Shown: positions 4,954 through 63,610 of the stretch, piece by piece
How positions within the stretch are numbered: position 1 is the stretch's first letter
How the letters are laid out: every line of letters begins with the position of its first letter
NCBI GenBank assembly: GCA_965248755.1
Contig: OZ252149.1
Span: 4,252,314 to 4,316,313 of the forward strand
From: Candidatus Latescibacterota bacterium
GTDB taxonomy: Bacteria; Latescibacterota; CBDEFO01
Length of the DNA: 64,000 bases
Reading direction: 5' to 3'
Position numbers and translations under genes: made by a program
The notes under the pieces: model-generated
Told to the model about the DNA's origin: nothing
Database searches by the model: none
What the model saw: only the letters and a program-made list of their open reading frames with translations

Positions 4954-7900
4954 TTATTGTGTCCTTCCGAAGTTATCCAGAAAAAGGACAAAGTCAGAAA
5001 GACCGATCTCTCCATTGCCGTCTAAATCAAATATAGAATTGGCTGAAGTGGTCGTTGTCCCGAACGCATCTAGAAACAGGACAAAGTCGGCAAGGCCTAC
5101 TTCATTGTTCCCATCGAAATCTGCTGCAAGGTCTGGGGGAACAGCAGATATATCAGAGAGATTCAACAACACTGATACATTATCGCTGTTCCAATTAGCC
5201 ACAGCCAGGTCATTTGTCTCATCGCCATCTAAATCTGAAATAAATACGGAATGGGGACCGTCTCCAGCATCAAAGTCCAGCTTATCTTCGAATGTCCCAT
5301 CTCCTTTATTCAAGAATACTGACACATTATCGCTGAAAGAATTAGCGACAACCATGTCATTATCCTCATCACCATCTAAATCCGCGATGAAAACTGAGCG
5401 GGGAAAACTTCCGGCGTCGTAGTCTATCTTAGGTGCAAATGTCCCATCGCCATGGTTCAACAACACAGATGCGTTGTCGTTGAAAAAATTTGCCACAGCT
5501 ATGTCATTATCTCCATCAGCATCTACATCCGAAACGAAAACGGATATGGGACCATTCCCAGTGGGATAGTCCACCTTGTCTGCAAATGTCTCATCTCCAT
5601 TATTCATCAGCACTGATACGTTGTGGCTGGACGTATTAGCTACAGTCAGATCATTATCTCCATCCCCATCGAGATCCGAAGCGAAAATCGAATGAGGACC
5701 AGCGCCAGCGGCGTAGTCGCTCCTATCTGGAAATATTCCATCTCCTTTATTCAGCAACACTGACACACTATTGCTGAGCTGATTTGCCACAGCTAAATCA
5801 TTATCTCCATCGCTATCTATATCCGAACTATAAACCGATATAGGACCATCACCGGCAGCATAATCTATCTTAGGCGCAAATGTGCCATCGCCATTATTCA
5901 ACAGTATTGATACATTGTCGCTGCTGAAATTAGCTACAGCTAAATCGTTATCCCCATCGCCATCTAAATCACCAATGAATACTGATTGAGGAACATCTCC
6001 AGCGGGATAGTCTATCTTGGGCGCAAACTTCCCGTCTCCATCATTAAGTAGCACAGAAACAATATCATTGCTCAGATTAGCTACAGCTAAATCGTTATCC
6101 CCATCGCCATCTAAATCTCCACTGAATACTGATTCCGGTTTTTCCCCGGTGGCGTAGTCAGTCGGAAGTCCGAAAAAGACAAAAGCAAACGCAAATCCAT
6201 TCTCAAGTGTGTCTGCCTTACCGTCAGCATTTGCAACTATCACATCGACAGTACCGACAGGGTGTGCGGGAGGCAGAGCGGTAATTCTATTGCTGGCCAC
6301 TACGACTACATCTATGGCTGCCATATCCCCGAAAGTGACAGTCGCTCCGATCCCGAAATTACTCCCCGTAATCGTCACAAGCGTACCGCCCGATTCTGAG
6401 CCGACACCGGGCCTGATAGATGTCACAACAAGAGGGGGAGGAACAATAAACTCAAAGGCGTTAAAGAGCGTGTCTGTCTGACCGTCTGGATATGTGAGTA
6501 TCACATCCACAGTACCAACAGGATGACCGGGAGTCAGAGCGGTAATTCTATTGCTGGCCACTACGACTACATCTGTGGCTGCCATATCCCCGAAAGTTAC
6601 AGTCGCTCCGATCCGGAAATTACTCCCTGTTATCGTCACGGACGTACCGCCCAATTCTAGGCCGGAAGTGGGACTGATAGATGTTACAACAGGAGGAGGA
6701 GGAACAATAAACTCAAATCCGTTAAAGAGTGTGTCTGTCTGACCGTCGGGATTTGTTACTATCACATCGACAGTACCGAGAGGATGAGCAGGAGTCACAG
6801 CCCTAATAGCAAGGGAGGATAGTACGGCTACGTCTATGCCTGCCATATCCCCGAAAGTAACGGTCGATCCGATCCGGAAAGTACTCCCTGTAATCGTCAC
6901 AGGCGTACCGCCCGATTCTGAGCCGACACCGGGCCTGATAGATGTCACAACAAGAGGTCCAGTAAGGACAAACTCAAAGCCACTAAAGAGCGTATCTGCC
7001 TGACCGTCGGGATTTGTTACTATCACATCCACAATACCGAGAGGATGAGCAGGAGTCTTGGCAGTAATAATACCCAGAAGTCCTACAGCTACATTTGTGG
7101 CTGCCATATCGCCGAAAGTAAGAGTCGCTCCACTCTGGAAATTGCTCCCCGTTATCGTCACAGGCATACCGCCCAATTCCGTGCCAGAGGTAGGACTAAT
7201 AGATGTCACAACTGGAGAAAGCGGCACATTAGACCGATTCAACAACACTGATACACCGTTGAGATGAGCCGTAACCAGGTCATTATCTCCATCCCCATCT
7301 AAATCTGCAATGAAGACTGATATGGAACCATCCCCAGCGGTGTAGTCCACCTTAGGTGCGAATGTACCATCTCCATTATTCAACAACACTGACACATTAG
7401 CGCTTTCCAAATTAGCCACAGCAAGGTCATTATCCCTATCACCATCTAAATCTGCAATGAAGACTGATATGGAACGATCCCCAGCGATGTAGTCCACCTT
7501 AGGTGCAAATGTACCATCTCCATTGTTCAATAGCACTGACACAATACCGGGCCTGCTACTAAAGCCTCTCGCATTAGCCACAGCAAGGTCATTATCTCCA
7601 TCTCCATCTAAATCCGCACTGAATACTGACCTGGGATCTTCCGTTGCGTGATAGTCCACCTTAGGTGCAAATGTACCATCCCCATTATTCATCAACACTG
7701 ATACAGTATTGCCGGGACGTCCACTAGCCACAGTCAAGTCATTATCTCCATCCCCATCTAAATCTGCACTGAAGACTGAATTGGAACCAGACTCAGTGGT
7801 ATAGTCCACTTTGTCTGCAAATGTCCCGTCTCCATTATTGAACAGTACTGATACAGTACCCACCACATTAGCCACAGCCAGATCATTATCCCCATCCCCA

Positions 7901-8634
7901 TCTAAATCAACACTGAAAACTGATTGGGGACTATCCCCAGCGGGATAGTCTACCCTAGGTGCAAATGTTCCATTTCCATTATTCATCAACACTGATATAC
8001 TACCGATGTCAACAAATGAAAATAAAGCAGAATTAGCCACAGCCAGGTCATTATCCCCATCTCCATCTAAATCTGCACTGAATACTGAATTGGGAACACG
8101 CCCAGTGGGATAGTCCACTTTAGGTGCAAATGTACCATCTCCATTATTCATCAAGACTGATACAGTGCTGTCGGGGGTGGGGGTGAAACCCCCGAAACCC
8201 CCATTGGCCACAGCCAGGTCATTATCTCCATCTCCATCTAAATCCACGCTGAATACTGACGAGGGTTTATGCCCAGCGGGATAGCTTGTCGGAAGTCCGA
8301 AAAGGGTAAAAAGAAACTCAAATCCATTCTTAAGTGTGTCTGCCTGACCGTCGGGATTTGTGACTATCACGTCCACAGTGTCAGCAGGATGAGCGGGACT
8401 CACAGCTCCAATAGCGAAGGAGAATTTACGGTTTACATCTGTGGCCGCACGATCTCCGAAAGTGACAGTCACTCCGCTTTGGAAATTGCTCCCTCTTATG
8501 CCCACAGCCGTGCGCACGAATTCCGGTCCGGAACTGGGAGTAATAGATGTAACGACAGGAGGTTCCTGTGCATAGGCAGTCGCATTCAAAGCGTACAGCA
8601 GTGCCAGCGCAGTGTAGAGTATGGTTAATTTCAT
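4954..8634 (-). CDS. giant secreted surface protein: FG-GAP/VCBS repeats + four IPT/TIG domains + C-terminal dockerin-like module
   Basis: 1226 aa; signal peptide MKLTILYTALALLYALNATAYA; more than 15 repeats of the type SVFSADLDGDGDNDLAVAN...SVLLNNGDGTFAPKVDY; four modules VVTSISPTSG...TITGSNF...TFGD...VTNPDGQ (IPT/TIG-like); dockerin-like tail DFDGNNEVGLADFVLFLDAFG...DLDGNGEIGLSDFVLFLDNFG. Confidence 0.85.
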   Translation of the reverse strand: MKLTILYTALALLYALNATAYAQEPPVVTSITPSSGPEFVRTAVGIRGSNFQSGVTVTFGDRAATDVNRKFSFAIGAVSPAHPADTVDVIVTNPDGQADTLKNGFEFLFTLFGLPTSYPAGHKPSSVFSVDLDGDGDNDLAVANGGFGGFTPTPDSTVSVLMNNGDGTFAPKVDYPTGRVPNSVFSADLDGDGDNDLAVANSALFSFVDIGSISVLMNNGNGTFAPRVDYPAGDSPQSVFSVDLDGDGDNDLAVANVVGTVSVLFNNGDGTFADKVDYTTESGSNSVFSADLDGDGDNDLTVASGRPGNTVSVLMNNGDGTFAPKVDYHATEDPRSVFSADLDGDGDNDLAVANARGFSSRPGIVSVLLNNGDGTFAPKVDYIAGDRSISVFIADLDGDRDNDLAVANLESANVSVLLNNGDGTFAPKVDYTAGDGSISVFIADLDGDGDNDLVTAHLNGVSVLLNRSNVPLSPVVTSISPTSGTELGGMPVTITGSNFQSGATLTFGDMAATNVAVGLLGIITAKTPAHPLGIVDVIVTNPDGQADTLFSGFEFVLTGPLVVTSIRPGVGSESGGTPVTITGSTFRIGSTVTFGDMAGIDVAVLSSLAIRAVTPAHPLGTVDVIVTNPDGQTDTLFNGFEFIVPPPPVVTSISPTSGLELGGTSVTITGSNFRIGATVTFGDMAATDVVVVASNRITALTPGHPVGTVDVILTYPDGQTDTLFNAFEFIVPPPLVVTSIRPGVGSESGGTLVTITGSNFGIGATVTFGDMAAIDVVVVASNRITALPPAHPVGTVDVIVANADGKADTLENGFAFAFVFFGLPTDYATGEKPESVFSGDLDGDGDNDLAVANLSNDIVSVLLNDGDGKFAPKIDYPAGDVPQSVFIGDLDGDGDNDLAVANFSSDNVSILLNNGDGTFAPKIDYAAGDGPISVYSSDIDSDGDNDLAVANQLSNSVSVLLNKGDGIFPDRSDYAAGAGPHSIFASDLDGDGDNDLTVANTSSHNVSVLMNNGDETFADKVDYPTGNGPISVFVSDVDADGDNDIAVANFFNDNASVLLNHGDGTFAPKIDYDAGSFPRSVFIADLDGDEDNDMVVANSFSDNVSVFLNKGDGTFEDKLDFDAGDGPHSVFISDLDGDETNDLAVANWNSDNVSVLLNLSDISAVPPDLAADFDGNNEVGLADFVLFLDAFGTTTTSANSIFDLDGNGEIGLSDFVLFLDNFGRTQ

Positions 8635-11245: not shown

Positions 11246-12605
11246 CAAGTAGCAGCATCTCTTCCCGAAAAGAAGTCAGGTTACTTTGTGTTCTTCGCGC
11301 CTTGACGCTATATCCTGTTCAACCTGGCGCGGTAGCAATGCCCACAGCGCCCGTGAGACCTGCATGACTTAGATACGTTTCGGATAACCTCAGTATAACC
11401 GAAAGCCGATCAAAAGCCTCCAGACCTGATGCGTATTGTCCTCTTTGGGCCCTGCTCCCTTTTCAAATCTGCGAGAGAACTTGTACACTTTCCCCTGAAG
11501 ATGGAGGTAAAACCTGTCACCTTCCTTGCGGCGTTTTATGTCGACTCCGATGTAATCTAATCCTTCCTCCATCCTGTCTATGCCCTCGTCTCCCGAAAAA
11601 GGCACAAGTGCCTCAGCCCTTTCACGGTCGTATTCAAAACCCACCCTAATGTCATTCCAGATCTGATAAGTCGTCCTGAAGAAAGCGTCTCTTTCTTCAT
11701 TCCTGAAGCCCTGCTCTTCTGTGCCTCTCCCGACGTGGTGTCCTACAATCCAATCCCTGTAGATATAGGGGAAGTTGCCAGCGACATCCCCGCTGTGCGC
11801 ATACCAGCCGTTCGGCGCCGAGATCCCTCTCCTCAAAAACCTACTTTCGACGACCTGAAATAGCCTTGCTAACTCTATCCTCAGATCCGCCCTTCCGTCC
11901 CTAAATAGGTCTCCAAGGTACGCACCTATCAAATAAGCACTATTGCGGCCCCAAGGTATTACCCTCCTTGCAAACCCCGGGTACCACACATCGTCTCCGG
12001 CTGTTAAACCATAGAGCTTAACGTAATCGTATAGATATACACTCCCCCCCACCTCAGCGATGGCATTGCCTCTTATATCCCCTGCTGTCTGATTAAGAAT
12101 GCTCTCTATGGGGTTCTCCTTAATGACGCCCCCGACGCTTGCTCCTACAGCGATCTTGTTTAGACCGACATTCCCCATATCACATTCATGAGGGATTGTA
12201 TTTCGATACAATCTTGTTTGTGAATGAATATTACCACTTTTACATTTTTCAACAAGTATTTTTTTCAATTAATTATAGTATTTTCCTCTGAATTATCACT
12301 TTCTTTGTGTTTAAATCCTCCAAATCGGAGACACCTCTCCATCGACTCACAAAAAAATGTGGCAGTTTAAACAGAGTAATATCGCAATCGTTCAATCCGG
12401 GATAATATTTCGGTAAATAAGCTCTTGTCTATCCCAACCTCAGCCATCTGAAACGTGATGTATCTGCTGTGCCTGACAAGCTTCGCGCCAATCTTGATCA
12501 ATGTCACGAGGAGGCTGCCAAGAGACCCCGGGATAATATCAGTGTTTGATTCTCCCTGGAAGAACCAACCGCCTTAGCCCGATTAATTCATAAACTTGCT
12601 GGAGT

Positions 12606-12628
12606 TATTGCGAGGAGCAAAGCGGTCC
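12606..12628. repeat. palindromic element copy (TCCCCGATTGAGTCTATCGGGGA)
   Basis: 7-8 bp perfect stem with 7-nt loop; member of a dispersed family (see findings). Confidence 0.8.
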
Positions 12629-12714
12629 CCGATTGAGTCTATCGGGGAAGCAATCTCAAGGTTTTATAGTGGTCTCCTATGAGAGTCGGAGAGTATTACA
12701 TCTACCACAAGTAA

Positions 12715-12738
12715 CCCCCGATTAAATCTATCGGGGGG
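12715..12738. repeat. palindromic element copy (CCCCCGATTAAATCTATCGGGGGG)
   Basis: Same stem and loop architecture, 109 bp from the previous copy in direct orientation. Confidence 0.8.
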
Positions 12739-12933
12739 ATTGCTTCGCCTTCGGCTTGCAATGACACCGAAGGTGGTTAAACGGCATAACTATAATATAA
12801 TACAATCCCTTAATTAATACACGGACTTTTTTTGTGAATTATTCGCCTCAGAAAGTTTCCAAGATTATAGGCCAGAAGAAATAACCAGAGCCTCACCTGA
12901 TCCCTTTCTGAACCCACATAGCATTGATATCTG

Positions 12934-13317
12934 TCAGGTGATATCTGACAGGCTGTTGAGATTTTCCAACTGAGTCAGTATCTCCGTTTCAAAACGTCCT
13001 ATCGTGTTGGCGCTGGCGGCGTGCTTGCCTTTGCCCTTCTTTCCGGTAATCGCTCGCATTACTGGGTCAACTGGTAAAGGATGAGCATTATTCACAGCTT
13101 CATATCCTGCAAGACGACTGTAAATCGATTGACGCATCAGTGTGGGCATATCATGTTGGATATTAAGTCCTCTTCGTAGATCGTTAAAAAGACTAGATAC
13201 TGAGTCGAATAATCCTAAAACGTCATCGAGGTCACGATACGCAAGAAGACCACCATCAGATGTCACCTTGGCACGATCAAATTCAAGCTTAATAGTTCCA
13301 TCAAATCCCATATTCAT
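12934..13317 (-). pseudogene. IS1380-family transposase, N-terminal fragment
   Basis: 127-aa ORF LEFDRAKVTSDGGLLAYRDLDDVLGL...YSRLAGYEAVNNA matches the conserved N-terminus of IS4/IS1380-type DDE transposases; the catalytic core is missing. Confidence 0.6.
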
Positions 13318-14278
13318 CCTTTCACCCTCTGGATGATCAATACTTATCCGCCATTTCCGAGTCTTATTTATTGTAATCTAACATGTTCTGGTGACTTTGA
13401 CAACCGTTTTTCGGGTCTAATATGAGGAATGGTGGTTAGATATGTCCACTGGAGCCTTGCGGTAATAAGGCTTACCTCATCTCCGGTTCGACTTTGAAGA
13501 CCGTCGATAATAGAGGTGCTCCCGGACACTGGACCCAAACTATGTTCTATCTGAATGGACCTAAGAGGAGGAGCGTTGTCTGTCAACACAAAATTTCCAT
13601 GGTAGCCCGGTCCCCACCATTGTCTGCTCTTCCCAAATAAAAAATCGGTCCTCAGAAACCTTACTTTAAGATAGACCTCGTCTAACTTTGCTACGGTTCT
13701 CTCGTCCTTTCCGAAAAGGTAAGGAGATGCAAAAAAGGCAGCATAAGGCGTAATACTTGCTCCTACATCTATTTTGGCCCCGATGCTGCCGCCCTTGGAA
13801 AAGTGATAAGGCTCAATATTATCCACATTTTTAACTGCCGCTCTGGTAGCTCCAAAGAGGGTTAACTCCCCCTTTATGTAAGGGATAAAAAGTTTTTTCC
13901 TTTTTCCCCGCTCTGCCTTTGCTATATCCTCCAATTCGAGTCGAAACTCGTGCTCAAGGTCTAAGACCCATCTTTCTACCTCCAAAGACAATGCCGGCTT
14001 ACTCTTTGACAGTCCATAAACTAAAAGAGCGGCCTCATAACGTCCGATGGGTTTGCTCTCGGACGGAGGACGCTCTAAAAGTCCCTTTGTGTTTAACCTT
14101 TCCAGGATACCGTACGCCCAGTGATGCAGGGGCAAAGCGACAGATGCTCTCCTTTCCTGGAACGGAGTCCACGTTCTACCTTGTGCCCAAACCTTACCGG
14201 CGTTAGCAGTACTGAGGTTCCCAAGCAGTATCGGAGAACTTTTTGGGGAAAAGAGGATTAGGGCAACATACGCACAAC

Positions 14279-18504: not shown

Positions 18505-18957
18505 CTACGTCAAAACACAAGCATTATCCACATAAAAAAATGTGGAGAGGGAGGGATGTTTGATTGGCCATGCGATCACTGGCCCGCTGCACCAGAGAGT
18601 TAAGGGTCTGTCGAGATTTTCGGCGATCTCCAAAGGTTCTGGGGCAGAGGGAATCTTGAAGAGTTGGCAATACTCCTTGAGGAGGTCCACAACAATAACA
18701 TCAAGGGCTGTCGCTAATCTTCTCAGTGTCCTAATGGAAAAACTGCTGTCGGATTTCTCCCACTTCGTGATAACAGTCCTGTGAACGCCGACCTTCACCG
18801 CTAACTGATACTGTTTCAGCCCGCGCTCCTTGCGAATGTTTCTGAGGTTTTCTCCTACCGTCAAACTTGTCTTCTTTGCTAACGTATGGCTGTTCTGACA
18901 GGATGTCGGATACGTAAATAAAAAGGTAATGCAGTAGAAAACTTGCACCTGGTACAT
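18505..18957 (-). CDS. XRE-family helix-turn-helix transcriptional regulator
   Basis: HTH segment LRNIRKERGLKQYQLAVKVGVHRTVITKWEKS; start uncertain (ORF track extends to 18993). Confidence 0.6.
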   Translation of the reverse strand: MYQVQVFYCITFLFTYPTSCQNSHTLAKKTSLTVGENLRNIRKERGLKQYQLAVKVGVHRTVITKWEKSDSSFSIRTLRRLATALDVIVVDLLKEYCQLFKIPSAPEPLEIAENLDRPLTLWCSGPVIAWPIKHPSLSTFFYVDNACVLT

Positions 18958-18991: not shown

Positions 18992-19776
18992 ATGAAAAAT
19001 TGCCCTCGCTGCAGGGGAAGAAAATTTTGGTTACTGAAGACTGGTCAGTTACGCTGTCGGAGGTGTAAATTGACTAGAAAGTTGACCTCCTCCTCCTGGG
19101 AGAAAACTCGAATGTCTCCGTACTGGAAGGGGAGGTTGGTTGAGTATTTTTGTCTTGGTGTTCCTGTTTACCGGTTGCGATTCCATGTTCCATACACGAG
19201 GAAGACTATGGAGCGCTGGTATCGGATCATTCGAAAGGAAATCTACCACCTCACCTTCAAGGAGCTTGAACTCCTTGAAGGTGAGGTGGAAATGGACGAA
19301 ACTCTCTTTGGTGGTAGAAGGCCTGGTAAGAGGGATTGGGGTGCTTTGGGCAAACAGATGGTCTTTGGGATCTATCAGAGAAAGGGTAAGGTGTTGACGT
19401 TTCCTATCTCGTCAAGGAGTCGTGACTCACTGTTGCCTCTTATTACCCAACACATCAAACCAGGGAGCTTATATTACACTGATGATTGGATAGCCTATGC
19501 CTCCCTTTCTATCAGTGGCAACCACGTGGTAGTGCCGAAAGAGAAGGGAATAGCTAGAGGAAGAGATCACCTTAATGGCGTGGAAGGTTTCTGGTCGTAT
19601 GCCAAACACTGGCTTTACCAGCGATCCCCGATTGATTCTATCGGGGAGGTGTTGACAAAAACTCCTTCCACCTTTACCTTAAGGAGATCGAGTGGTGCTT
19701 CAACCATCGCCACGAAAATCTCCTTCCACTTATAAGAAAGCTACTCGATCAACAAGCTGTCAAAGAGCTAAATTAG
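18992..19776 (+). pseudogene. IS1595-family transposase interrupted by a palindromic element
   Basis: N-terminal zinc ribbon CPRCRG...CRRC and DDE core with HLNGVEGFWSYAKHWLYQ; the family-typical C-terminus (KNSFHLYLKEIEWCFNHRHENLLPLIRKLL) is encoded in a different frame immediately after the palindrome at 19626-19648. Confidence 0.7.
19626..19648. repeat. palindromic element copy (TCCCCGATTGATTCTATCGGGGA) inside the IS1595 transposase gene
   Basis: Same family as 12606; sits exactly at the frame break. Confidence 0.8.
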
Positions 19777-23499: not shown

Positions 23500-25143
23500 A
23501 TGAAGAAGATCACACCTTTCCATATATTAGCGATCGTTCTTACAGTATTCTTCTGCGCCGTAAGATACATTAGATGGCAGGAGCCTATGGGACTTGACCA
23601 GGGTCTCTTTGCCTACTTCGGAAGACACATCCTCACCGGCAGTGTCCCCTACTTAGACATCTGGGACAGCAAACCTCCCGCTATATTCTATATATACTCC
23701 ATCAGCTTTGCTCTACTGGGGGACTCCTTTTTCAGCGTCTTTCTTAGCGAAACCCTATTCTTGGCTCTCACGGCCCTCTTGATCTATCTTCTGTGCGCAG
23801 AAGTTTTCGATAAGACAGTCGCCCTATTTGCCGCGGCCATCTACGTTCTCTTTTCCAACGCTTCTATATTCGACGGATTCTGGTCCACAGCACAGGCTGA
23901 GGTCTTCATGAACTTGCCCATAGTCGCAAGCTTCTACATCCTCACCAAGAACTTAAGGAGATGGCACTTTTTCGCCTCTGGGGTTCTTCTCGGACTGTCA
24001 GCGATGTTCAAACTTACCGCCCTATTCCTGCTACCCTCTTTTATCCTGTATCTCTACCTATCCTGCAAAGAGAGATCCCCGATTGAAGCTACCGGGGATG
24101 GGATTCACAGGTACACATATTTCGGCATCGGACTTATCATCCCCCTGTCAATCTGCGCCTTCTACTTCTGGATGCAGGGAGCCCTGGACGATATGATTTA
24201 CACACTTGTCTCTTACAGCTACCGGTACTCGCAAGCCATAAACCAGGGACATCCTTTTCTCAAGACTTCCCTTGGACAGGTCATAAGGTTTGTCTATTTC
24301 AACCCCACAGTATCCATTTTATCCCTCGTCGGACTTATATATCTCCTTGTAAAAAGACGTTCTAAAGAAACGTATCTTTTAATATCCTATCTTGTGCTAT
24401 CCTTTATTTCGGTCTGTGCGCAAAGACAGTTTGCAGGGTACCACTTCATCGTGCTCTCTCCTCCGCTTGCCGTTATCTGCGGCAGTGCATGCCCCGTTAT
24501 ATTCAACTGGATAGTCCAAGTCGTGCGACCACTCCGTAGTGCAAGGACGATCCTCCGCAAAAGATCCTCAAAGCCTCTGCTCAGGTCATCGGCAGCTATT
24601 ATGACAGTTGTATTATTAGCCTCCCTTCTTTACGCGGACATTTCCCGTTATTATCGGTACTACAAACCCGACATCGCCTATGCTCTTGGAAAGATCCCCG
24701 AAAGACAATATCTAAAGACCTTTGACAGGGGGGCAATATCCTTTCTGAATAACAACTCTGTAGCTGACTATATAAAAAATAGGACCGATAGTGACGACTA
24801 TGTCTTGGTATGGGGATTAGCTCCTGCTATATATTATCTGTCAGACAGAAAATCTCCCACAAAATACGTCTTCCACCACGTTCTGTTGACCGACGCTCCG
24901 CTGTCCCTCACTCTTGGCGGACTTGAAGAAAGGAGGAGGGAATTCATAGATAAAGTAAGTGAAAGCAAGCCCCGTTACATCGTCATAGGCATCAACGACA
25001 GGAACGGCTTTGAGCCGCAGGACTCCTACACTCAGCTTCTCAATTTCAAAGAGCTCAAGGACTATGTCTTTACAAACTACGATAGAGAGAAAAGAATCGG
25101 GAATTTCATCCTTATGAGGAGAAAAGACCAGAAAGTACTTTAA
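23500..25143 (+). CDS. polytopic membrane glycosyltransferase-like protein (GT39/GT83, ArnT/PMT-like)
   Basis: Start moved to the ATG after the terminator; multiple TM helices; family assignment tentative; contains an in-frame palindromic element at 24076-24098. Confidence 0.5.
   Translation: MKKITPFHILAIVLTVFFCAVRYIRWQEPMGLDQGLFAYFGRHILTGSVPYLDIWDSKPPAIFYIYSISFALLGDSFFSVFLSETLFLALTALLIYLLCAEVFDKTVALFAAAIYVLFSNASIFDGFWSTAQAEVFMNLPIVASFYILTKNLRRWHFFASGVLLGLSAMFKLTALFLLPSFILYLYLSCKERSPIEATGDGIHRYTYFGIGLIIPLSICAFYFWMQGALDDMIYTLVSYSYRYSQAINQGHPFLKTSLGQVIRFVYFNPTVSILSLVGLIYLLVKRRSKETYLLISYLVLSFISVCAQRQFAGYHFIVLSPPLAVICGSACPVIFNWIVQVVRPLRSARTILRKRSSKPLLRSSAAIMTVVLLASLLYADISRYYRYYKPDIAYALGKIPERQYLKTFDRGAISFLNNNSVADYIKNRTDSDDYVLVWGLAPAIYYLSDRKSPTKYVFHHVLLTDAPLSLTLGGLEERRREFIDKVSESKPRYIVIGINDRNGFEPQDSYTQLLNFKELKDYVFTNYDREKRIGNFILMRRKDQKVL
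24076..24098. repeat. palindromic element copy (TCCCCGATTGAAGCTACCGGGGA) inside a coding sequence
   Basis: 19 of 21 identity to the family consensus; 6-bp stem; read-through in frame as RSPIEATGDG. Confidence 0.6.
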
Positions 25144-28530: not shown

Positions 28531-28903
28531 CGAACAACCTCGTCCTTGAAGGCTTCAGCACCTTCTTCAGATGATCTACAATTACCGAACTGTCCATCCC
28601 ACCTGGTGGCTTGCTGCCGCCCCTGAAAGAATCATTCGGGGACTGTTCGTCCCTCCCGTCACAGGTCAGAATATCCACAGCCATAAATCCCTCCTCAGCC
28701 CAGGTGTGGACGCTCACGTGCGACTCGGAGATCATGACAAATCCGCTGAATCCGTAAGGCTCGAACTGATGAAAGTGATGGTGCACGATCCTGGCACCTG
28801 AAAGCTTCACAGCCTCTATCAATACGCTCTTGACAGGCTCTACCTGCTTCAAGAGGTCTATGTTATCAAACCACATATCCAAAAGGATGTGGCTCCTTGT
28901 CAT
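28514..28903 (-). CDS. speH: S-adenosylmethionine decarboxylase proenzyme (small bacterial/archaeal type)
   Basis: 129 aa; processing-site motif in FVMISESHVSVHTWAEEG. Confidence 0.8.
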   Translation of the reverse strand: MTRSHILLDMWFDNIDLLKQVEPVKSVLIEAVKLSGARIVHHHFHQFEPYGFSGFVMISESHVSVHTWAEEGFMAVDILTCDGRDEQSPNDSFRGGSKPPGGMDSSVIVDHLKKVLKPSRTRLFDAERG

Positions 28904-30056: not shown

Positions 30057-32622
30057 CTATCCTGTCGTGCCGAAGTTATCCAGAAAGATCACAAAGTCAG
30101 ATAGACCTACTTCTCCATCGCTGTCCAAGTCATACGCAGAATCCCAATCGACTGAACTGGTAGTTGTTCCGAACACATCTAGAAAACGGACAAAATCGGA
30201 GAGACCTACTTCATTATCCCCGTCGAAATCTCCTACAAGGTCAGGGACGACAGTAAAGTCAGAGATATTCAACAACACTGACACACTGTCGCTCCATCTA
30301 TTAGTCACAACAAGGTCATTATTTCCATCTCCATCCAAATCCGCACTAAAAACTGACACGGGACCATTCCCAACACTATAGGCCGCATTAATTTCAAATG
30401 TCCCATTTCCATCATTCAACAACACTGACACATTATCACTGTTCTCATTAGCTACAGCCAAGTCATTATCCCCATCCCCGTCTAAATCCACACTGAAAAT
30501 TGATATAGGACTGTCCCCAACAGCATAGTTCATCTTAGGAGCAAATGTTCCATTTCCATTATTCAACAACACTGATACACTATCGCTGCCAATATTAGCT
30601 GTTGCTAAGTCATTATCTCCATCTCCATCTAAATCTGTACTGAATACTGATGCGGGTTCATTTCCAGCGTCATAGTCTGCCCTAAATGGAAATGCTCCAT
30701 CTCCACTATTCAACAACACCGATACATTTTCGCTAATAAGATTAGCCACAACTAATTCATTATCCCCATCCCCATCTAAATCCACACTGAAAATTGATAT
30801 AGGACCCTCCCCAACAGCATAGTCCACCTTAGGTGCAAATGTGCCATTCCCATTATTCAACAACACTGATACATTATCGCTGTTCCAATTAGCCACAGCC
30901 AAGTCATCATCCCCATCTCCATCTAAATCTGTAATGAATACTGACTCGGGACTACCCCCAACTGCATAGTCAGTCCTGGGTCCGAAAAGGACATCGACAA
31001 AAGCAAATCCGTCAGAGAGTGTGTCTGTCAGACCATTGGGATTTGTAACTATTACGTCTACAGTGCTAATAGGATGAGCGGGAATCACAGCGGTGATCGT
31101 ACTGGAGGATACTATGACTACGTCTGTGGCTGCTCTATCTCCGAAAGTAACAGTTGCTCCACTTTGGAAATCGCGGCCTTTTATCGTCACAGATGTACCA
31201 CCCAATTTCGTGCCGAAAATAGGATCAATAGATGTCACAATAGGGGGAACCCCAATAAAAGCAAATCCATTAGACAGTGTGCCAGCCTGACCGTCGGGAT
31301 TTGTGACTGTCACATCCACAATGCCAACGGGATGAGCGGGAGTTGTTGCGGTAATGGTACCCCAAAGTCCTACAGCTACATTTGTGGCATCGCTCTCGCC
31401 GAAAATAACAGTCGCTCCACTTTGGAAATTGCTCCCTGTTATCGTCACAGACGTACCCTCTAATTCCAGGCCAGAAGTGGGATTGATAGAGGTTACAGCC
31501 AGAGAAGGTATCACATCGGAGAGATTCAACAACACTGATACATTATCGCTACCCAAATTAGCCACAGCCAAGTCGTTATCACCATCTCCATCTAAATCCA
31601 CACTGAATACTGATTCGGGACGACTCCCAGCGGCATAGTCTACCTTAGGTGCAAATGGTCCCATTCCCATTATTCAATAACACTGATACATTATCGCTGA
31701 GGAAATTAGCCACAGCTAAGTCGTTATCTTCATCACCATCTAAATCTGCAATGAATACTGAATAGGCATGATCCCCAGCGGGATAGTCCACCTTAGTTAC
31801 AAATGTCCCATTCCCATTATTCAATAACACTGATACAGTACCGTCGAATACAGAATTAGCCACAGCCAAGTCATTATCCCCATCTCCATCTAAATCTGCA
31901 ATGAATACTGAAGAGGGACCAAGCCCGGCGTTATAGTCTGTCTTAGGTGCAAATGTCCCATCTCCTTTGTTCAACAACACTGATACATTATAGCTGTTCC
32001 TGTTAGCCACAGCCATGTCATTATCCCCGTCTCCATCTAAATCTGCGATGAAAACTGAAACGGGATTATCCCCAACAATCAAGTCTACCTTAGGTACAAA
32101 TGTTCCGTTCCCATTGTTCAATAATACTGAAACGCTATCGCTCCCTGCATTAGCCACAGCGAGGTCATTATCTCCATCCCCATCTAAATCTGCAATGAAT
32201 ACTGAACGGGGGAAAACCCCAGTGCCATAATCCACCTTATGCCCAAATGTTCCATCCCCATTATTTAACAACACTGATACAGTACCTGGGGGGATGTTAT
32301 TAGCCACAGCTAAGTCATTATCCCCATCTCCATCTAAATCCGCACTGAATACTGAACGGGGATATTCCGTAACACCATAGTCCACCTTAGGTGCAAATGT
32401 ACCATCGCCATTATTCAACAACACTGATACAGTACCTGGGGAGATGCTATTAGCCACAGCTAAGTCATTATCCCCATCTCCATCTAAATCCGCACTGAAT
32501 ACTGAACGGGGTTTATCCCCAGTGGCATAGGAAGTCGGAGGCCCCAAAAGGGCTTGTGCATAGACAGGCGCATACAAAGCGACTAACAGGATCAAAGCAG
32601 TATATAAGATTGCACACCTCAT
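30057..32622 (-). CDS. secreted FG-GAP/VCBS + IPT/TIG + dockerin-like surface protein, second paralogue, with apparent 1-nt frameshift near 31650
   Basis: ORFs 31645..32622 (signal peptide MRCAILYTALILLVALYAPVYAQA plus FG-GAP repeats) and 30057..31670 (FG-GAP, three IPT/TIG, dockerin-like tail) overlap; the frame break lies inside a conserved NNGNGTFAPK repeat. Confidence 0.7.
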
Positions 32623-34076: not shown

Positions 34077-34099
34077 TCCCCGATAGATTCAATCCGGGA
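34077..34099. repeat. palindromic element copy, inverted orientation (TCCCCGATAGATTCAATCCGGGA)
   Basis: Reverse complement matches the family consensus with one mismatch; intergenic. Confidence 0.7.
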
Positions 34100-58019: not shown

Positions 58020-59365
58020 GGGTCTGTCAGTTTTTTTGTGTAAATGGGATTTTCTTCTGTACCCTTTTCGGCTTATTCTATACCAAATCTCCCCTCGAAG
58101 TGGATGGAGAATTGGTGAATGGCCAAGCTCCAGTTCCTGATCGGCATCGTCCATTTTTTCTTGATATTCTTGAGTGTCATATAGAGTAACTTAATCGCTG
58201 TCTCGTCGTTTGGGAAGCTATTTCTGTTCTTTATTACTTTCCGTAGAGAGTTATTAAGCGATTCGATGGCGTTTGTGGTATAGATCACCCTTCGGATCTC
58301 TTCAGAGTAGGCGAAAAACGGGATGATCCGAGACCAGTTATTCTGCCACGATTTACTTATCATCGGATAACGGCTGTCCCAAGCCTCCTGAAAATCTCCA
58401 AGGGCCTCTTCAGCCTGTTCTACCGTGGGGGCTCGGTATATATTCTTGAGGTCGGCGGCAATCTTCTTACGATCCCTATACGACACGAACTTCAAGGAAT
58501 TCCTCACCACATGGACAATACAGAGCTGGACCTCTGCTTGGGGAAATACGGATTCAATAGCCTCTGGAAGACCCTGGAGACCATCCACGCAAGCTATCAA
58601 CACATCGTTCATCCCCCGATTCTTAAGCTCCGTGAAAACTTGCAGCCAGAACTTCGCCCCCTCGCTCTTTGCAATCCAGATACCCAAAACGTCTTTCATC
58701 CCATCCAGACCGACCCCTACCGCAAGATACACCGCCTTGTTTACGATCCGGCCTTCGTCTCTAATCTTCATCACCAGAGAATCAAAGAATACTATGGGAT
58801 ACACCCCTTCCAAAGGACGATCCTGCCACTGCTTCACCTCTGATATGATCCCATCGGTCACAGTCGATATCAAATCAGGGGCACCTCTACACCGTATATC
58901 TCCTCCAAATGAGCCTGTATATCACGTGTGGTCATCCCTCGGGCATACATAGACAGTATCTTATCATCAAAACCTGTAAATCGCCTCTGCCCCTTCCTCA
59001 CTATCTGCGGATCAAACTGACTGTTCCGATCCCGTGGCACCGATATCTCCAGATCACCATAATCTGTCTTCAATCCCTTTGTGCTCCTACCGTTGCGCGA
59101 ATTACCGCTGTTCCTCCCTTCTGGAGAACTCTTATCGTAGCCTAACTCATACGTAAGCTCTGACTCCAGAGCCCGCTCAAGAATCGCCTTCGTCAACTGC
59201 TTCAAAAGACCTTCCTAACCAATTATGTCTTCCGGCTTCTTGTAATCCTTCAAAAGCTCATCAATCAACTTCGGGTCTAGCTTGTCCATGTAAGAACTCC
59301 TTATGTAAATGGTGGACAACTAATATAACTCATTTCCCCATTTACACAAATTTCCTTACACACCC
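58020..59365 (-). mobile_element. IS256-family insertion sequence, copy 1 (inactivated), flanked by 8-bp TSD TCTATATC
   Basis: Termini GGGTCTGTCAGTTTTTTTGTGTAAATGGG / CCCCATTTACACAAATTTCCTTACACACCC form imperfect IRs; identical 8-mers at 58012-58019 and 59366-59373. Confidence 0.85.
58073..59319 (-). pseudogene. IS256-family transposase, inactivated (1-nt deletion plus nonsense codon)
   Basis: Split into ORFs 58073..58873 and 58870..59205; relative to copy 2 lacks one A near 58878 and has GAG to TAG near 59203; also a Q to R substitution. Confidence 0.85.
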
Positions 59366-60860: not shown

Positions 60861-60938
60861 GCGCCCATGGCTCAATTTGGATAGAGCATCTGACTACGGA
60901 TCAGAAGGTTGGGGGTTCGAGTCCCTCTGGGCGTGCCA
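60861..60938 (+). tRNA. tRNA-Arg (anticodon ACG)
   Basis: Cloverleaf folded by hand: acceptor GCGCCCA/TGGGCGT, D-stem GCTC/GAGC, anticodon stem TCTGA/TCAGA with loop CTACGGA, T-stem GGGGG/CCCTC with loop TTCGAGT, discriminator G, encoded CCA. Confidence 0.8.
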
Positions 60939-61534: not shown

Positions 61535-61819
61535 GTGGATCGAGATGCTCTCTTCGACTTTACTTGCTCTGGCTGTGGCCAGACATCCTTCTGGAGTTGG
61601 GATTGTCGGCAATTCAGGATTAGGGATCTGTCAGTTTTTGAATTTAAGGCCTACCTGATCATAGATAAATATCGCACCAATTGTCCAATCTGCGGGGTGA
61701 AGATTGAAGGACTTGACTTTGTTGATTCTTATTACCGATGCACTGCCGAACAATGGATTAAGGTAGGCAAATATGCTCTGAACTGGGTCCGGCTATCATG
61801 CCAGCGTCCCCGATTGTGA
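61535..61819 (+). pseudogene. ISL3-family transposase, N-terminal fragment
   Basis: CSGCG...RIRDLSVFEFKAYLIIDKYRTNCPICG matches the zf-ISL3 N-terminal pattern; ORF stops at the palindromic element. Confidence 0.5.
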
Positions 61820-61852
61820 TCCCCTATTGAATCTATAGGGGAGCGGGGATCA
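61807..61852. repeat. compound palindromic element (TCCCCGATTG + TGATCCCCTATTGAATCTATAGGGGAGCGGGGATCA)
   Basis: Contains the family loop TGAATCT in a nested hairpin; sits between the ISL3 and IS1380 fragments. Confidence 0.7.
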
Positions 61853-61853
61853 G

Positions 61854-62096
61854 GTGAGGCTCTGGTTATTTGTTCTGGCCAATAATCTTGGAAACTTTCT
61901 GAGGCGGTTGGTTCTTCCAGGGATAATCAAATACCGCTCTCTTGGCAGCCTCCTTGTGAAATTGATCAAGATTGGCGCGCAGATTGTCAGGCACAGCAGA
62001 TACATCACGTTTCAGATGGTTGAGGTTGGGATAGACATGAGGTTATTTGCCGAAATATTATCCCGGATTGAACGATTGCGATGTTACTCTGTTTAG
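61854..62096 (+). pseudogene. IS1380-family transposase, C-terminal fragment
   Basis: LANNLGNFLRRLVLPGIIKYRSLGSLLVKLIKIGAQIVRHSRYITFQMVEV matches the conserved C-terminus; near-identical DNA to 12368-12560 on the opposite strand. Confidence 0.6.
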
Positions 62097-62263
62097 AAGC
62101 CTTGTGAAATAGTTATCTTGTAGGCAGCGTCTGAAACGTCTATTATGGGTCAAACAGTAGCATATCGTATCGTTTTGCTATGGAATAAGCAAAATAGTCT
62201 CATCAGAGTTCTGGTCAGCAAGGAATAGAAGCTGTTTGAAGAACAGGATGCACTGTCTTTGAA

Positions 62264-63610
62264 GGGTCTGTCAGTTTTTTTGTGTAAATGGGATTTTCTT
62301 CTGTACCCTTTTCGGCTTATTCTATACCAAATCTCCCCTCGAAGTGGATGGAGAATTGGTGAATGGCCAAGCTCCAGTTCCTGATCGGCATCGTCCATTT
62401 TTTCTTGATATTCTTGAGTGTCATATAGAGTAACTTAATCGCTGTCTCGTCGTTTGGGAAGCTATTTCTGTTCTTTATTACTTTCCGTAGAGAGTTATTA
62501 AGCGATTCGATGGCGTTTGTGGTATAGATCACCCTTCGGATCTCTTCAGAGTAGGCGAAAAACGGGATGATCCGAGACCAGTTATTCTGCCACGATTTAC
62601 TTATCATCGGATAACGGCTGTCCCAAGCCTCCTGAAAATCTCCAAGGGCCTCTTCAGCCTGTTCTACCGTGGGGGCTCGGTATATATTCTTGAGGTCGGC
62701 GGCAATCTTCTTACGATCCCTATACGACACGAACTTCAAGGAATTCCTCACCACATGGACAATACAGAGCTGGACCTCTGCTTGGGGAAATACGGATTCA
62801 ATAGCCTCTGGAAGACCCTGGAGACCATCCACGCAAGCTATCAACACATCGTTCATCCCCTGATTCTTAAGCTCCGTGAAAACTTGCAGCCAGAACTTCG
62901 CCCCCTCGCTCTTTGCAATCCAGATACCCAAAACGTCTTTCATCCCATCCAGACCGACCCCTACCGCAAGATACACCGCCTTGTTTACGATCCGGCCTTC
63001 GTCTCTAATCTTCATCACCAGAGAATCAAAGAATACTATGGGATACACCCCTTCCAAAGGACGATCCTGCCACTGCTTCACCTCTGATATGATCCCATCG
63101 GTCACAGTCGATATCAAATCAGGGGACACCTCTACACCGTATATCTCCTCCAAATGAGCCTGTATATCACGTGTGGTCATCCCTCGGGCATACATAGACA
63201 GTATCTTATCATCAAAACCTGTAAATCGCCTCTGCCCCTTCCTCACTATCTGCGGATCAAACTGACTGTTCCGATCCCGTGGCACCGATATCTCCAGATC
63301 ACCATAATCTGTCTTCAATCCCTTTGTGCTCCTACCGTTGCGCGAATTACCGCTGTTCCTCCCTTCTGGAGAACTCTTATCGTAGCCTAACTCATACGTA
63401 AGCTCTGACTCCAGAGCCCGCTCAAGAATCGCCTTCGTCAACTGCTTCAAAAGACCTTCCTCACCAATTATGTCTTCCGGCTTCTTGTAGTCCTTCAAAA
63501 GCTCATCAATCAACTTCGGGTCTAGCTTGTCCATGTAAGAACTCCTTATGTAAATGGTGGCCAACTAATATAACTCATTTCCCCATTTACACAAATTTCC
63601 TTACACACCC
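62264..63610 (-). mobile_element. IS256-family insertion sequence, copy 2 (intact transposase), no TSD
   Basis: Same termini as copy 1; flanks TCTTTGAA and ACGAAATC differ. Confidence 0.85.
62317..63564 (-). CDS. IS256-family (mutator-type) transposase
   Basis: 415 aa uninterrupted; typical IS256 sequence features. Confidence 0.9.
   Translation of the reverse strand: MATIYIRSSYMDKLDPKLIDELLKDYKKPEDIIGEEGLLKQLTKAILERALESELTYELGYDKSSPEGRNSGNSRNGRSTKGLKTDYGDLEISVPRDRNSQFDPQIVRKGQRRFTGFDDKILSMYARGMTTRDIQAHLEEIYGVEVSPDLISTVTDGIISEVKQWQDRPLEGVYPIVFFDSLVMKIRDEGRIVNKAVYLAVGVGLDGMKDVLGIWIAKSEGAKFWLQVFTELKNQGMNDVLIACVDGLQGLPEAIESVFPQAEVQLCIVHVVRNSLKFVSYRDRKKIAADLKNIYRAPTVEQAEEALGDFQEAWDSRYPMISKSWQNNWSRIIPFFAYSEEIRRVIYTTNAIESLNNSLRKVIKNRNSFPNDETAIKLLYMTLKNIKKKWTMPIRNWSLAIHQFSIHFEGRFGIE

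Follow-up and report, generated by a model that had tools for sequence, protein, structure and literature searches.

The six short hairpins in the stretch of 'Candidatus Latescibacterota' DNA analysed here (64,000 nt, referred to below as the window) very probably belong to a family of mobile mini-hairpins. We also consider it probable, with less confidence than we place in mobility itself, that they are very small, non-coding, non-autonomous elements that spread by being joined into staggered breaks in the target DNA.

A first-pass annotation of the sequence had described at least six dispersed copies of a 21-bp palindrome. A search for CCCCGAT-N7-ATCGGGG, allowing up to two mismatches, returned exactly six matches across the 64-kb window (46.6% GC), where 0.32 were expected by chance, and none of 100 dinucleotide-preserving shuffles of the window reached six. 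The 21-mer matches lie at 12627-12647, 12716-12736, 19626-19646, 24077-24097, 34078-34098 (loop reversed) and 61821-61841. All of the later copies fall within 1 nt of the positions first assigned to them, while the first, originally placed at 12606, had been set about 20 nt too low. With one further base on either side, the copies and the elements that carry the first two are as follows.

12165-13435, minus strand: non-autonomous IS1380-family derivative of about 1 kb that hosts the MITE, with Pfam DDE_Tnp_1_4 and NCBIfam IS1380 matches
12575-12848, plus strand: MITE of about 270 bp with terminal inverted repeats CGATTAATTCATAAA / TTTGTGAATTATTCG, carrying hairpin copies 1 and 2
12626-12648, plus strand: hairpin copy 1, T-CCCCGATTGAGTCTATCGGGG-A, in the MITE (pattern match, 0 mismatches)
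12715-12737, plus strand: hairpin copy 2, C-CCCCGATTAAATCTATCGGGG-G, in the MITE (pattern match)
19625-19647, plus strand: hairpin copy 3, within an IS1595-family transposase gene that is frameshifted there
24076-24098, plus strand: hairpin copy 4, in frame (SPIEATG) in a PMT_2 glycosyltransferase gene (23500-25143)
34077-34099, minus strand: hairpin copy 5, with one stem mismatch, intergenic between divergent aminotransferase and AIR-synthase/HypE-like genes
61807-61849, plus strand: nested pair, the outer copy consisting of 61807-61819 and 61843-61849 and the inner, complete 23-mer of 61820-61842

It can be seen that the contexts originally noted (intergenic DNA, coding sequence and transposase break points) are all represented: a glycosyltransferase gene, an intergenic region, an IS1595 gene, a MITE in an IS1380 remnant and a joint between ISL3 and IS1380 sequences. 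The compound copy reported near 61807-61852 proved to be a complete 23-mer within the loop of a second copy. Its inner 23-mer is a compensated stem variant (CCCCTAT..ATAGGGG), and the pair marks the precise point where a truncated ISL3 gene (61535-61819, an N-terminal fragment) meets a truncated IS1380 gene (61854-62096, a C-terminal fragment). When folded as single-stranded DNA, the intact copies formed the expected hairpin, with an 8-bp stem, a 7-nt loop and a z score of about -3.5; copy 5 folded weakly.

The 21 bp first given for the unit is slightly short. Since conservation runs one base past the 21-mer on each side and then ends, the unit is 23 nt, 5'-Y CCCCGAT TGAATCT ATCGGGG R-3', a near-perfect palindrome centred on a base that is free to vary, and with an outermost Y/R pair that covaries. 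Among 163 non-redundant copies, position -1 is a pyrimidine in 153 and position +1 a purine in 154, and the two form a Watson-Crick pair in 137, where 72 would be expected and 2000 shuffles gave no more than 92. Information content ends at positions -2 and +2 (148 and 163 non-redundant copies), which are R and Y, respectively, and are unpaired with each other. Position 11 of the 21-mer is free (A 96, G 21, T 18, C 13), so that the centre reads GANTC, and the remaining loop positions are 90-99% conserved; because positions 8 and 14 are both T in >97% of copies, the two strands of the element can be told apart. The stem is maintained by compensatory change, with variants such as CCCCAAT..ATTGGGG and CCCCTAT..ATAGGGG at several independent sites and double compensated changes at stem pairs 4 and 5 in eight copies. 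Loop variants and kinds of closing pair are associated (p=0.005), indicating that the closing pair travels with the unit. In groundwater contigs there are sibling families, among them CCCCGAATGTATCTATCGGGG and CCCCGAGTGTCTCTATCGGGG, that have retained CCCCGA, TG and CTATCGGGG, an asymmetric conservation which suggests that a folded single strand may be what is recognised.

Mobility is supported by insertion polymorphism at about 15 sites, in paralogous MITE or IS copies and in one ortholog. The MITE at 12575-12848, which interrupts the IS1380-type remnant, is present in at least 15 copies of 84-97% identity in a related metagenome-assembled genome (MAG); a second IS remnant in the window and one at locus L174, the latter used to set the boundaries of the IS1380-family derivative at 12165-13435, are free of it. 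At the site of copy 1 (site A) three other MITE copies are empty, GCG-ACG-AAGC being converted to GCG-GT[21]-AAGC with a net gain of 20 nt, and at the site of copy 2 (site B) eleven other MITE copies read AATCGAG instead, again with a net gain of 20 nt. One further MITE copy (L019) has an extra, tandem hairpin 27 nt away. Of the copies of an IS1182/IS5-like element, one is filled at sites C and D and 11-12 near-identical ones are empty there. Between two IS1595 paralogs the difference lies at sites E and F, one of which is that of window copy 3; in the paralog at L022, which is without this copy, CAATATC^GAGGCG corresponds to CAGCGATC[CCC..GGG]GAGGTG (net +20 nt), and it is the insertion of copy 3 that frameshifts the IS1595 gene in the window. 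Seven further filled and empty pairs (sites H to N) were found in groundwater contigs, one of them involving a sibling family. A glycosyltransferase ortholog of 87% identity is filled at the same site as copy 4 with a second, inverted copy nested inside, and orthologs at 39-44% identity are without the 6-9 extra residues. At sites J, K and M the empty state may have arisen by secondary deletion and need not be ancestral.

As judged from these sequence comparisons, the hairpin is an independent insertion and not merely part of a longer repeat. The idea that all copies are parts of one longer repeat, which the first-pass annotation had named as a potential objection, is ruled out by the filled and empty pairs, among them the MITE copies that lack one or both hairpins. 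A related explanation is that the hairpin is not itself mobile but either a conserved functional site, such as a terminator, an RNA motif or a palindrome bound by a protein, or no more than a passenger of longer repeats. In favour of this are the conservation of its sequence in different phyla, the two window copies (of six) that are carried by a MITE and the many copies from metagenomes that lie within recurrent repeat families. Against this, paralogous repeats occur with and without the hairpin, unrelated proteins contain it in four reading frames, and copies also occur within transposase genes and inside one another, while an Rfam search gave no match at the hairpins, which have no T-run and no fixed position relative to genes. 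We therefore regard a non-mobile hairpin as very improbable.

We next consider how widely the family of mobile hairpins is distributed. The ortholog cluster containing the 87%-identical relative of the copy-4 glycosyltransferase lies on contig CBDEFO010000003 of a 'Candidatus Latescibacterota' MAG, and the ENA contig that carries the glycosyltransferase ortholog cluster (L001) is 92-97% identical in DNA sequence to syntenic stretches of the window at 17.9-30.9 kb. A scan of one genome per GTDB species (596 Gb) with the stricter pattern CCCCGATTNANNCTATCGGGG gave at least 76 matching stretches. Sixty of those listed were 8-kb blocks of one Latescibacterota MAG, and the other matches listed came from several 'Deltaproteobacteria' groundwater MAGs, one Thermodesulfobacteriota MAG and single contigs of other taxa; the singletons with non-consensus loops may be due to chance, since 18 specified bases give about 17 chance matches in 596 Gb. 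With up to three mismatches allowed, the window and 77 loci contain at least 159 copies, at least 130 of them in the 60 8-kb blocks of the related MAG, and the total DNA examined held 159 + 131 copies; these numbers are lower bounds, as the DNA covered amounts to about 14% of one genome plus fragments. The exact 21-mer is found in 96 further metagenome stretches, mostly groundwater or sediment contigs of 40-46% GC, with four distinct loci at 61-67% GC. No match to the hairpin was found in viral contigs, which were searched for phage carriage, and none of the papers searched contains the 21-mer. New copies have been added repeatedly and recently in the Latescibacterota lineage, and the same 21-mer is present in unrelated uncultured bacteria, among them inhabitants of groundwater and soil. 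Copy number far above chance, together with the filled and empty sites, bears out the original description of a dispersed, mobile, non-coding hairpin family and disposes of the concern that copies might be no more frequent than chance.

In contrast to the unit, which is always intact, the joints on the target side vary. Of the 163 non-redundant copies, 11 have the 23-mer flanked by an exact 4-nt direct repeat, where 1.0 was expected and none of 300 shuffles reached 11. Such perfect duplications account for just 7% of copies, and several events delete target bases. The duplicated tetranucleotides begin with Y and end with R, and the composition of the flanks is mirror-symmetric (YYNR, unit, YNRR). 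No excess of 5-6-nt target duplications was seen among the 163 copies, and a 2-nt duplication was rejected, because the dinucleotides on either side repeat directly only where they are self-complementary (AT and GC). The resolved events fall into several classes of net gain. One is a clean insertion of net +19 nt inside TC^GA. Six give +20 nt, the commonest gain at non-nested sites; in five of these a clean right joint keeps the target's G-R and the left joint gains R-Y, and at the sixth, site I, the 23-mer stands in place of ATT. One event gives +21 nt and three give +27 nt, one of the latter with TAAA duplicated. In three replacement events 9-14 nt are lost, and the lost bases are themselves small hairpins. 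Overall, the right joint is clean in seven of eight well-resolved events, with the target's own G-R kept in six of these seven. Duplication of 4 nt fits the arithmetic of the larger class (23+4 = 27), which is also the tandem period and equals nine codons, and loss of 4 nt fits that of the smaller (23-4 = 19), as in nested copies and in the clean event.

The polarity of these joints would be compatible with RNA-mediated spread, a route reportedly proposed for the small dispersed repeats (SDRs) of cyanobacteria, in which a transcribed hairpin would serve as the template for a reverse transcriptase, priming would occur at a nick in the target and the cDNA would be joined in. A clean right joint with an extra or changed base at the left resembles target-primed synthesis, and variable-length duplication or loss of target bases is typical of target-primed reverse transcription. 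At the closing position there are 13 T/G and only 3 C/A pairs, a G-T tolerance confined to one strand; within the core stem, however, G-U pairs are in no excess over A-C pairs (14 against 10). Orientation relative to host genes is also unbiased (27 same, 20 opposite), no reverse transcriptase was seen near the copies, and none is known that uses a 23-nt template. On balance, spread through RNA seems unlikely. The orientation of copies with respect to GC skew shows a weak strand bias (p=0.047), from counts that are not independent, and is given no weight here.

Copies of the hairpin land preferentially in the loop or centre of other palindromes: MITE hairpins, REP-like cassettes, CTGTCTA heptamers and the hairpin's own loop. 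Thirty-five of 131 non-redundant copies are nested in or abut another copy, 18 of 131 lie between CTGTCTA heptamer repeats (CTGTCTAC; 1.7 expected) and 12 of 131 occupy the loop of palindromic cassettes of the form GTCATTGCGA..GAAGCAATC (1.5 expected); flanking palindromy of at least 5 bp was found around 11 of 148 copies, against 0.7 expected. Nesting follows a rule, whereby positions 1-11 of the outer copy are followed by Y[21]R and then by outer positions 16-21, the inner 23-mer taking the place of outer positions 12-15 (TCTA). A triple nest is present at locus L050. Neighbouring copies within 400 nt of each other are direct in 20 cases and inverted in 10, and the only recurrent short spacing is the 27-nt direct period. 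What is observed, then, is the addition of an intact 23-nt unit at loop-like targets with duplication of 4 nt, loss of 4 nt or messier joints.

Genes are also hit. Approximately 47 of 148 copies lie in stop-free stretches of at least 150 codons, spread over all four open frames of the hairpin (SPIESIG, PRLNLSG, SPIDSIG and PDRFNRG), and the coding hosts include the glycosyltransferase, IF-2 and an Ig-like surface protein. Copies survive within genes only where one of the four stop-free frames keeps the reading frame. Such in-frame residence agrees with the likeness to Rickettsia palindromic elements that had been drawn at the outset.

The preference for palindrome loops, together with heterogeneous joints at which 2-14 nt of target are replaced, would also be expected of an enzyme-free template switch, in which replication stalls at a hairpin and the nascent strand switches by microhomology to another extruded copy, replicates it and returns, leaving a patch that propagates itself. 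The 2-6 nt of identity between donor and target at the right joint (G-R; GCAGGC at site H) and the copy at the joint of two unrelated IS fragments could be accommodated in the same way. The sharp ends of the unit, with no information past -2/+2, and the specific class of 4-nt duplications speak against it, and a loop that is 90-99% conserved and an identical 21-mer in organisms of 40-67% GC would be hard to account for without a sequence-specific factor. We consider template switching alone quite unlikely.

The first-pass annotation had also pointed to REP/PATE-like elements, usually mobilised in trans by an IS200-type transposase. In REP/REPIN-type movement the hairpin would travel as single-stranded DNA, mobilised by a HUH tyrosine transposase of the RAYT or IS200/IS605 type whose single gene lies elsewhere in the genome, and such movement would suit a short dispersed hairpin with no coding capacity, most of whose copies have no target duplication. 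The asymmetric loop and stem conservation between sibling families, suggestive of a folded single strand, and the preference for T/G over C/A at the closing position point the same way. Assignment to the IS200/IS605-dependent REP/RAYT or PATE class was not supported, however: no GTAG or CGTC tag adjoins the hairpin in the sets of 148 and 163 non-redundant copies, there are no REPIN-like inverted doublets at a fixed spacing, about one third of copies are intragenic, and the excess of exact 4-nt duplications and the replacement of target bases are unlike the products of Y1 transposases. A cognate Y1/HUH gene was likewise not encountered, as no Y1_Tnp-like ORF was detected (E<=10) among 3102 ORFs of the window and 77 loci, 665 kb of this genome group, with queries that matched Pfam Y1_Tnp at 1e-38 and 1e-42; this search covered about 14% of the MAG and could miss divergent RAYTs. 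Taken together, a REP/REPIN-type mechanism appears improbable.

Other candidate partners were examined. An IS200/IS608-type transposase is rejected for the 3102 ORFs of the 665 kb. An IS1380-type parent or partner was suspected because the IS1380 family has CC ends and 4-5-bp target duplications, and was discarded since the window element ends in the terminal repeats CATTCCCCATAT, which are unrelated to the hairpin. The 21-mer could also have represented the fused ends of a larger IS, but solo half-sites (CCCCGATTGA or TCTATCGGGG) in the 665 kb are all remnants of nests. A cyanobacterial origin or an association with HIP1 was dismissed, since the window contains no GCGATCGC and the copies come from Latescibacterota and other hosts. 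A search for a gene shared next to copies across hosts yielded nothing suggestive, the neighbours being ordinary genes; one recurrent neighbouring 'ORF' is a translation of stacked repeats. Within the window, no candidate mobilising gene was found, as had been stated originally.

To account for the observed joints we propose that a trans-acting, sequence-specific factor would recognise the hairpin and define the ends of the unit. Two parts of the hairpin that stay conserved from one sibling family to the next, the stem CCCCGA/TCGGGG and the loop bases TG and CTA, may be the features it recognises. The break that then receives the unit would have a 4-nt stagger and lie at a Y..R tetranucleotide, only loosely specified, that is accessible in loops of single-stranded or cruciform DNA. 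Filling in of the overhangs would give a 4-nt target duplication (+27 nt) and their trimming would remove the tetranucleotide (+19 nt, as in nests), whereas sloppier processing might yield +20 or +21 nt or the replacement of 9-14 nt. Gene frameshifts, short peptide insertions and recombination joints between unrelated IS fragments would follow as side effects. The simple fill-in-or-trim scheme gives +20, the commonest gain, only with one extra nucleotide at the left joint. No mobilising enzyme was found in the DNA covered, about 14% of one genome plus fragments, so that the central step is one that we infer, and because a double-stranded 23-bp segment is too short to form the synapse loop of a classical DDE transposase, the chemistry would be unusual.

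By behaviour, and as compared from descriptions rather than from sequence, the closest known kind would be the cyanobacterial SDRs. In 2008 Elhai et al. reportedly described SDR1-8 of Nostoc punctiforme and related heterocyst-forming cyanobacteria as repeats of 21-27 nt, which are said to form hairpins with compensatory changes, to nest in themselves, to reside in heptamer repeats and minitransposons and to have moved recently. The hairpin family studied here shares the size class (23 nt, with a 27-nt tandem period) and the high copy number, the maintenance of the hairpin by compensatory changes (the closing pair in 137 of 163 copies and eight double changes), self-nesting and residence in tandem heptamer repeats and MITEs (35 of 131, 18 of 131 and the 270-bp MITE), presence or absence among otherwise identical sequences, and the lack of coding capacity and of a known mobilising enzyme. 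SDRs are reportedly restricted to one cyanobacterial subgroup. Unlike them, the hairpins have Latescibacterota, unclassified 'Deltaproteobacteria', Thermodesulfobacteriota and high-GC organisms as hosts, with no HIP1 in the window. We know of no counterpart in the SDR description to the joint anatomy found here (a 23-nt unit, 4-nt duplication or loss and a Y..R target). In the literature SDRs are viewed as repeats of about 20 nt that may be mobile (PMC4390886, PMC2884548), and SDR5 inserts precisely within HIP1 (PMC4390886).

Like MITEs, the hairpin is non-autonomous, its two 11-nt arms are formally terminal inverted repeats and a subset of copies has a 4-nt duplication. MITEs, however, are usually at least several-fold longer than 23 nt; in addition, no parent IS with hairpin ends was found in the 665 kb, which represent part of the genome, and most copies are without a duplication. 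REP and REPIN sequences are likewise short dispersed palindromes with many copies, sometimes intragenic and thought to be moved in trans (PMC3116915, PMC3733652). They differ in their tags and doublets, in the far higher intragenic share, the nesting and the 4-nt duplications of the present family, and in their RAYT, which was not found in the 665 kb. Rickettsia palindromic elements, which are about 100-150 bp and have a CGTC tag (PMC3733652), also insert in frame in protein-coding genes and are tolerated as an extra peptide, whereas the hairpin is 23 nt and untagged. A looser parallel is offered by the mobile hairpins of organelles, namely yeast mitochondrial GC clusters, Neurospora PstI palindromes, Allomyces double-hairpin elements and Glomus SIRs (PMC3787672). 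These are short, their means of spread is unexplained, they enter coding as well as non-coding DNA and they favour rearrangements; in contrast to the present family they are mitochondrial, about 30-80 nt long and unrelated in sequence.

At 23 nt the hairpin ranks among the smallest mobile DNA elements known. To our knowledge mobile repeats below about 30 nt have been described for one cyanobacterial group only, and their mechanism has been open since 2008. SDR-like behaviours, namely nesting, residence in heptamer repeats and MITEs and the in-frame addition of peptides, are now seen in a distant uncultured phylum, with the identical 21-mer in several other lineages. Within their hosts the hairpins frameshift genes, mark rearrangement joints and add 7-9 residues to proteins, IF-2 and the glycosyltransferase among them, and they will mislead gene callers and repeat annotation in metagenome-assembled genomes. 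The many filled and empty pairs made it possible to define a signature of the joints, in which the 23-nt unit stays whole, a Y..R tetranucleotide is either duplicated or lost and hairpin loops are the favoured targets; any candidate enzyme must be able to produce it. We tentatively raise the possibility, which for now seems rather doubtful, that an as yet undescribed, sequence-specific integration machinery, neither Y1/HUH nor classical DDE, recognises and joins the folded hairpin into 4-nt staggered breaks in loops, and that this machinery or the element has crossed phyla among subsurface bacteria. Were this the case, the hairpin would be the smallest transposable unit with a defined target-joint signature and would offer a way into the mechanism by which cyanobacterial SDRs and organellar hairpin elements move.

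Position 11, the central loop base of the 21-mer, is free in all hairpin copies, so that the centre of the element reads GANTC, the site recognised by CcrM/HinfI-type methyltransferases. One degenerate hairpin in the window (28620-28642; CCCCTGAAAGAATCATTCGGGG) differs from the family consensus at 5-6 positions and is kept in the relative (L001:12694); it may be an ancient member of the family or may match by chance. A 21-nt tandem duplication, CTCAGGGTCCTAATGGATCTG, that is present in the relative (L001:802) and absent at window position 18722 is not related to the hairpin.

The window also carries the following repeats and mobile elements.

4954-8634, 30057-31670 and 31645-32622: very large FG-GAP/TIG repeat proteins, with tandem units of 147 nt and 261 nt
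12165-13435: non-autonomous IS1380-family derivative of ~1 kb, terminal repeats CATTCCCCATAT
12575-12848: MITE of ~270 bp, terminal inverted repeats CGATTAATTCATAAA / TTTGTGAATTATTCG
58020-59177 and 62264-63564: IS256-family element, present twice
61535-62262: patchwork of IS fragments between a tRNA (60861-60935) and an IS256 copy

The MITE, bracketed in the window by a repeated CGCCT, contains a palindromic cassette, GTCATTGCGAGG..GAAGCAATC. At least 15 copies with 84-97% identity are found in the related Latescibacterota MAG; the loci that carry it include L006, L009, L019, L044 and L049, among others. In the IS1380-family derivative, which also occurs at L174:2883-3844, all that is left of the gene is its C-terminal end and an N-terminal ORF; the best 120 database homologues of this ORF are all short (103-223 aa). 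At L175 (2980-3640) a pyruvate dehydrogenase E1 gene is interrupted by a partial gene of this family. The two IS256 copies are 100% identical across the compared stretches, and the one at 58020-59177 appears to be truncated (ORF of 266 aa versus 415 aa). In the patchwork the nested hairpin lies between an ISL3 N-terminus and an IS1380 C-terminus, and a further piece is 170 bp of an IS1182/IS5-like element.

The FG-GAP/TIG family forms the biggest ORF cluster among all hairpin-bearing loci, in Latescibacterota and other hosts alike. Within a 779-codon ORF of L023 (3900-4400, 6870-7120) there are eight copies of a variant, CCTGT-CCCCGAATGACTCTATCGGGG, set in 112-115-nt repeats, some of them paired in a 27-nt tandem. 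Several families of sibling hairpins, such as GCCTGC-CCCCGAATGTATCTATCGGGG-G and CCCCGAATGTTTCTATCGGGG-ATAGAA, are present in groundwater contigs of 40-46% GC together with stacked MITE-like repeats (TTGATTTTTGGGGAAAC...GAGGCCATTTTTGC and GGGAATCCAG...CTGGATTCCC); these features map to the metagenome contigs L079-L173 and to L003, L040 and L052. Translation of such repeats accounts for spurious conserved 'ORFs' in the groundwater contigs.

Palindromic cassettes of the form GTCATTGCGA..GAAGCAATC are found in MAG loci (for example L008:6270-6330, L028:3110-3190 and L051:3530-3600). Since CGTC often precedes them (CAACGTCATTGCGA), they look like the CGTC-tagged REP class, which is without a known transposase (PMC3733652). 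Among the sites that the hairpin itself prefers are short arrays in which the heptamer CTGTCTA is repeated in tandem; these arrays occur at L048:3440-3560, L045:6250-6360, L047, L058, L071 and other MAG loci, often with GGGAGG..GCC on their 5' side. The frequency of CTGTCTA in the MAG blocks is 2.4 times the expectation. The association of hairpin and arrays has a parallel in the STRR heptamers of cyanobacteria.
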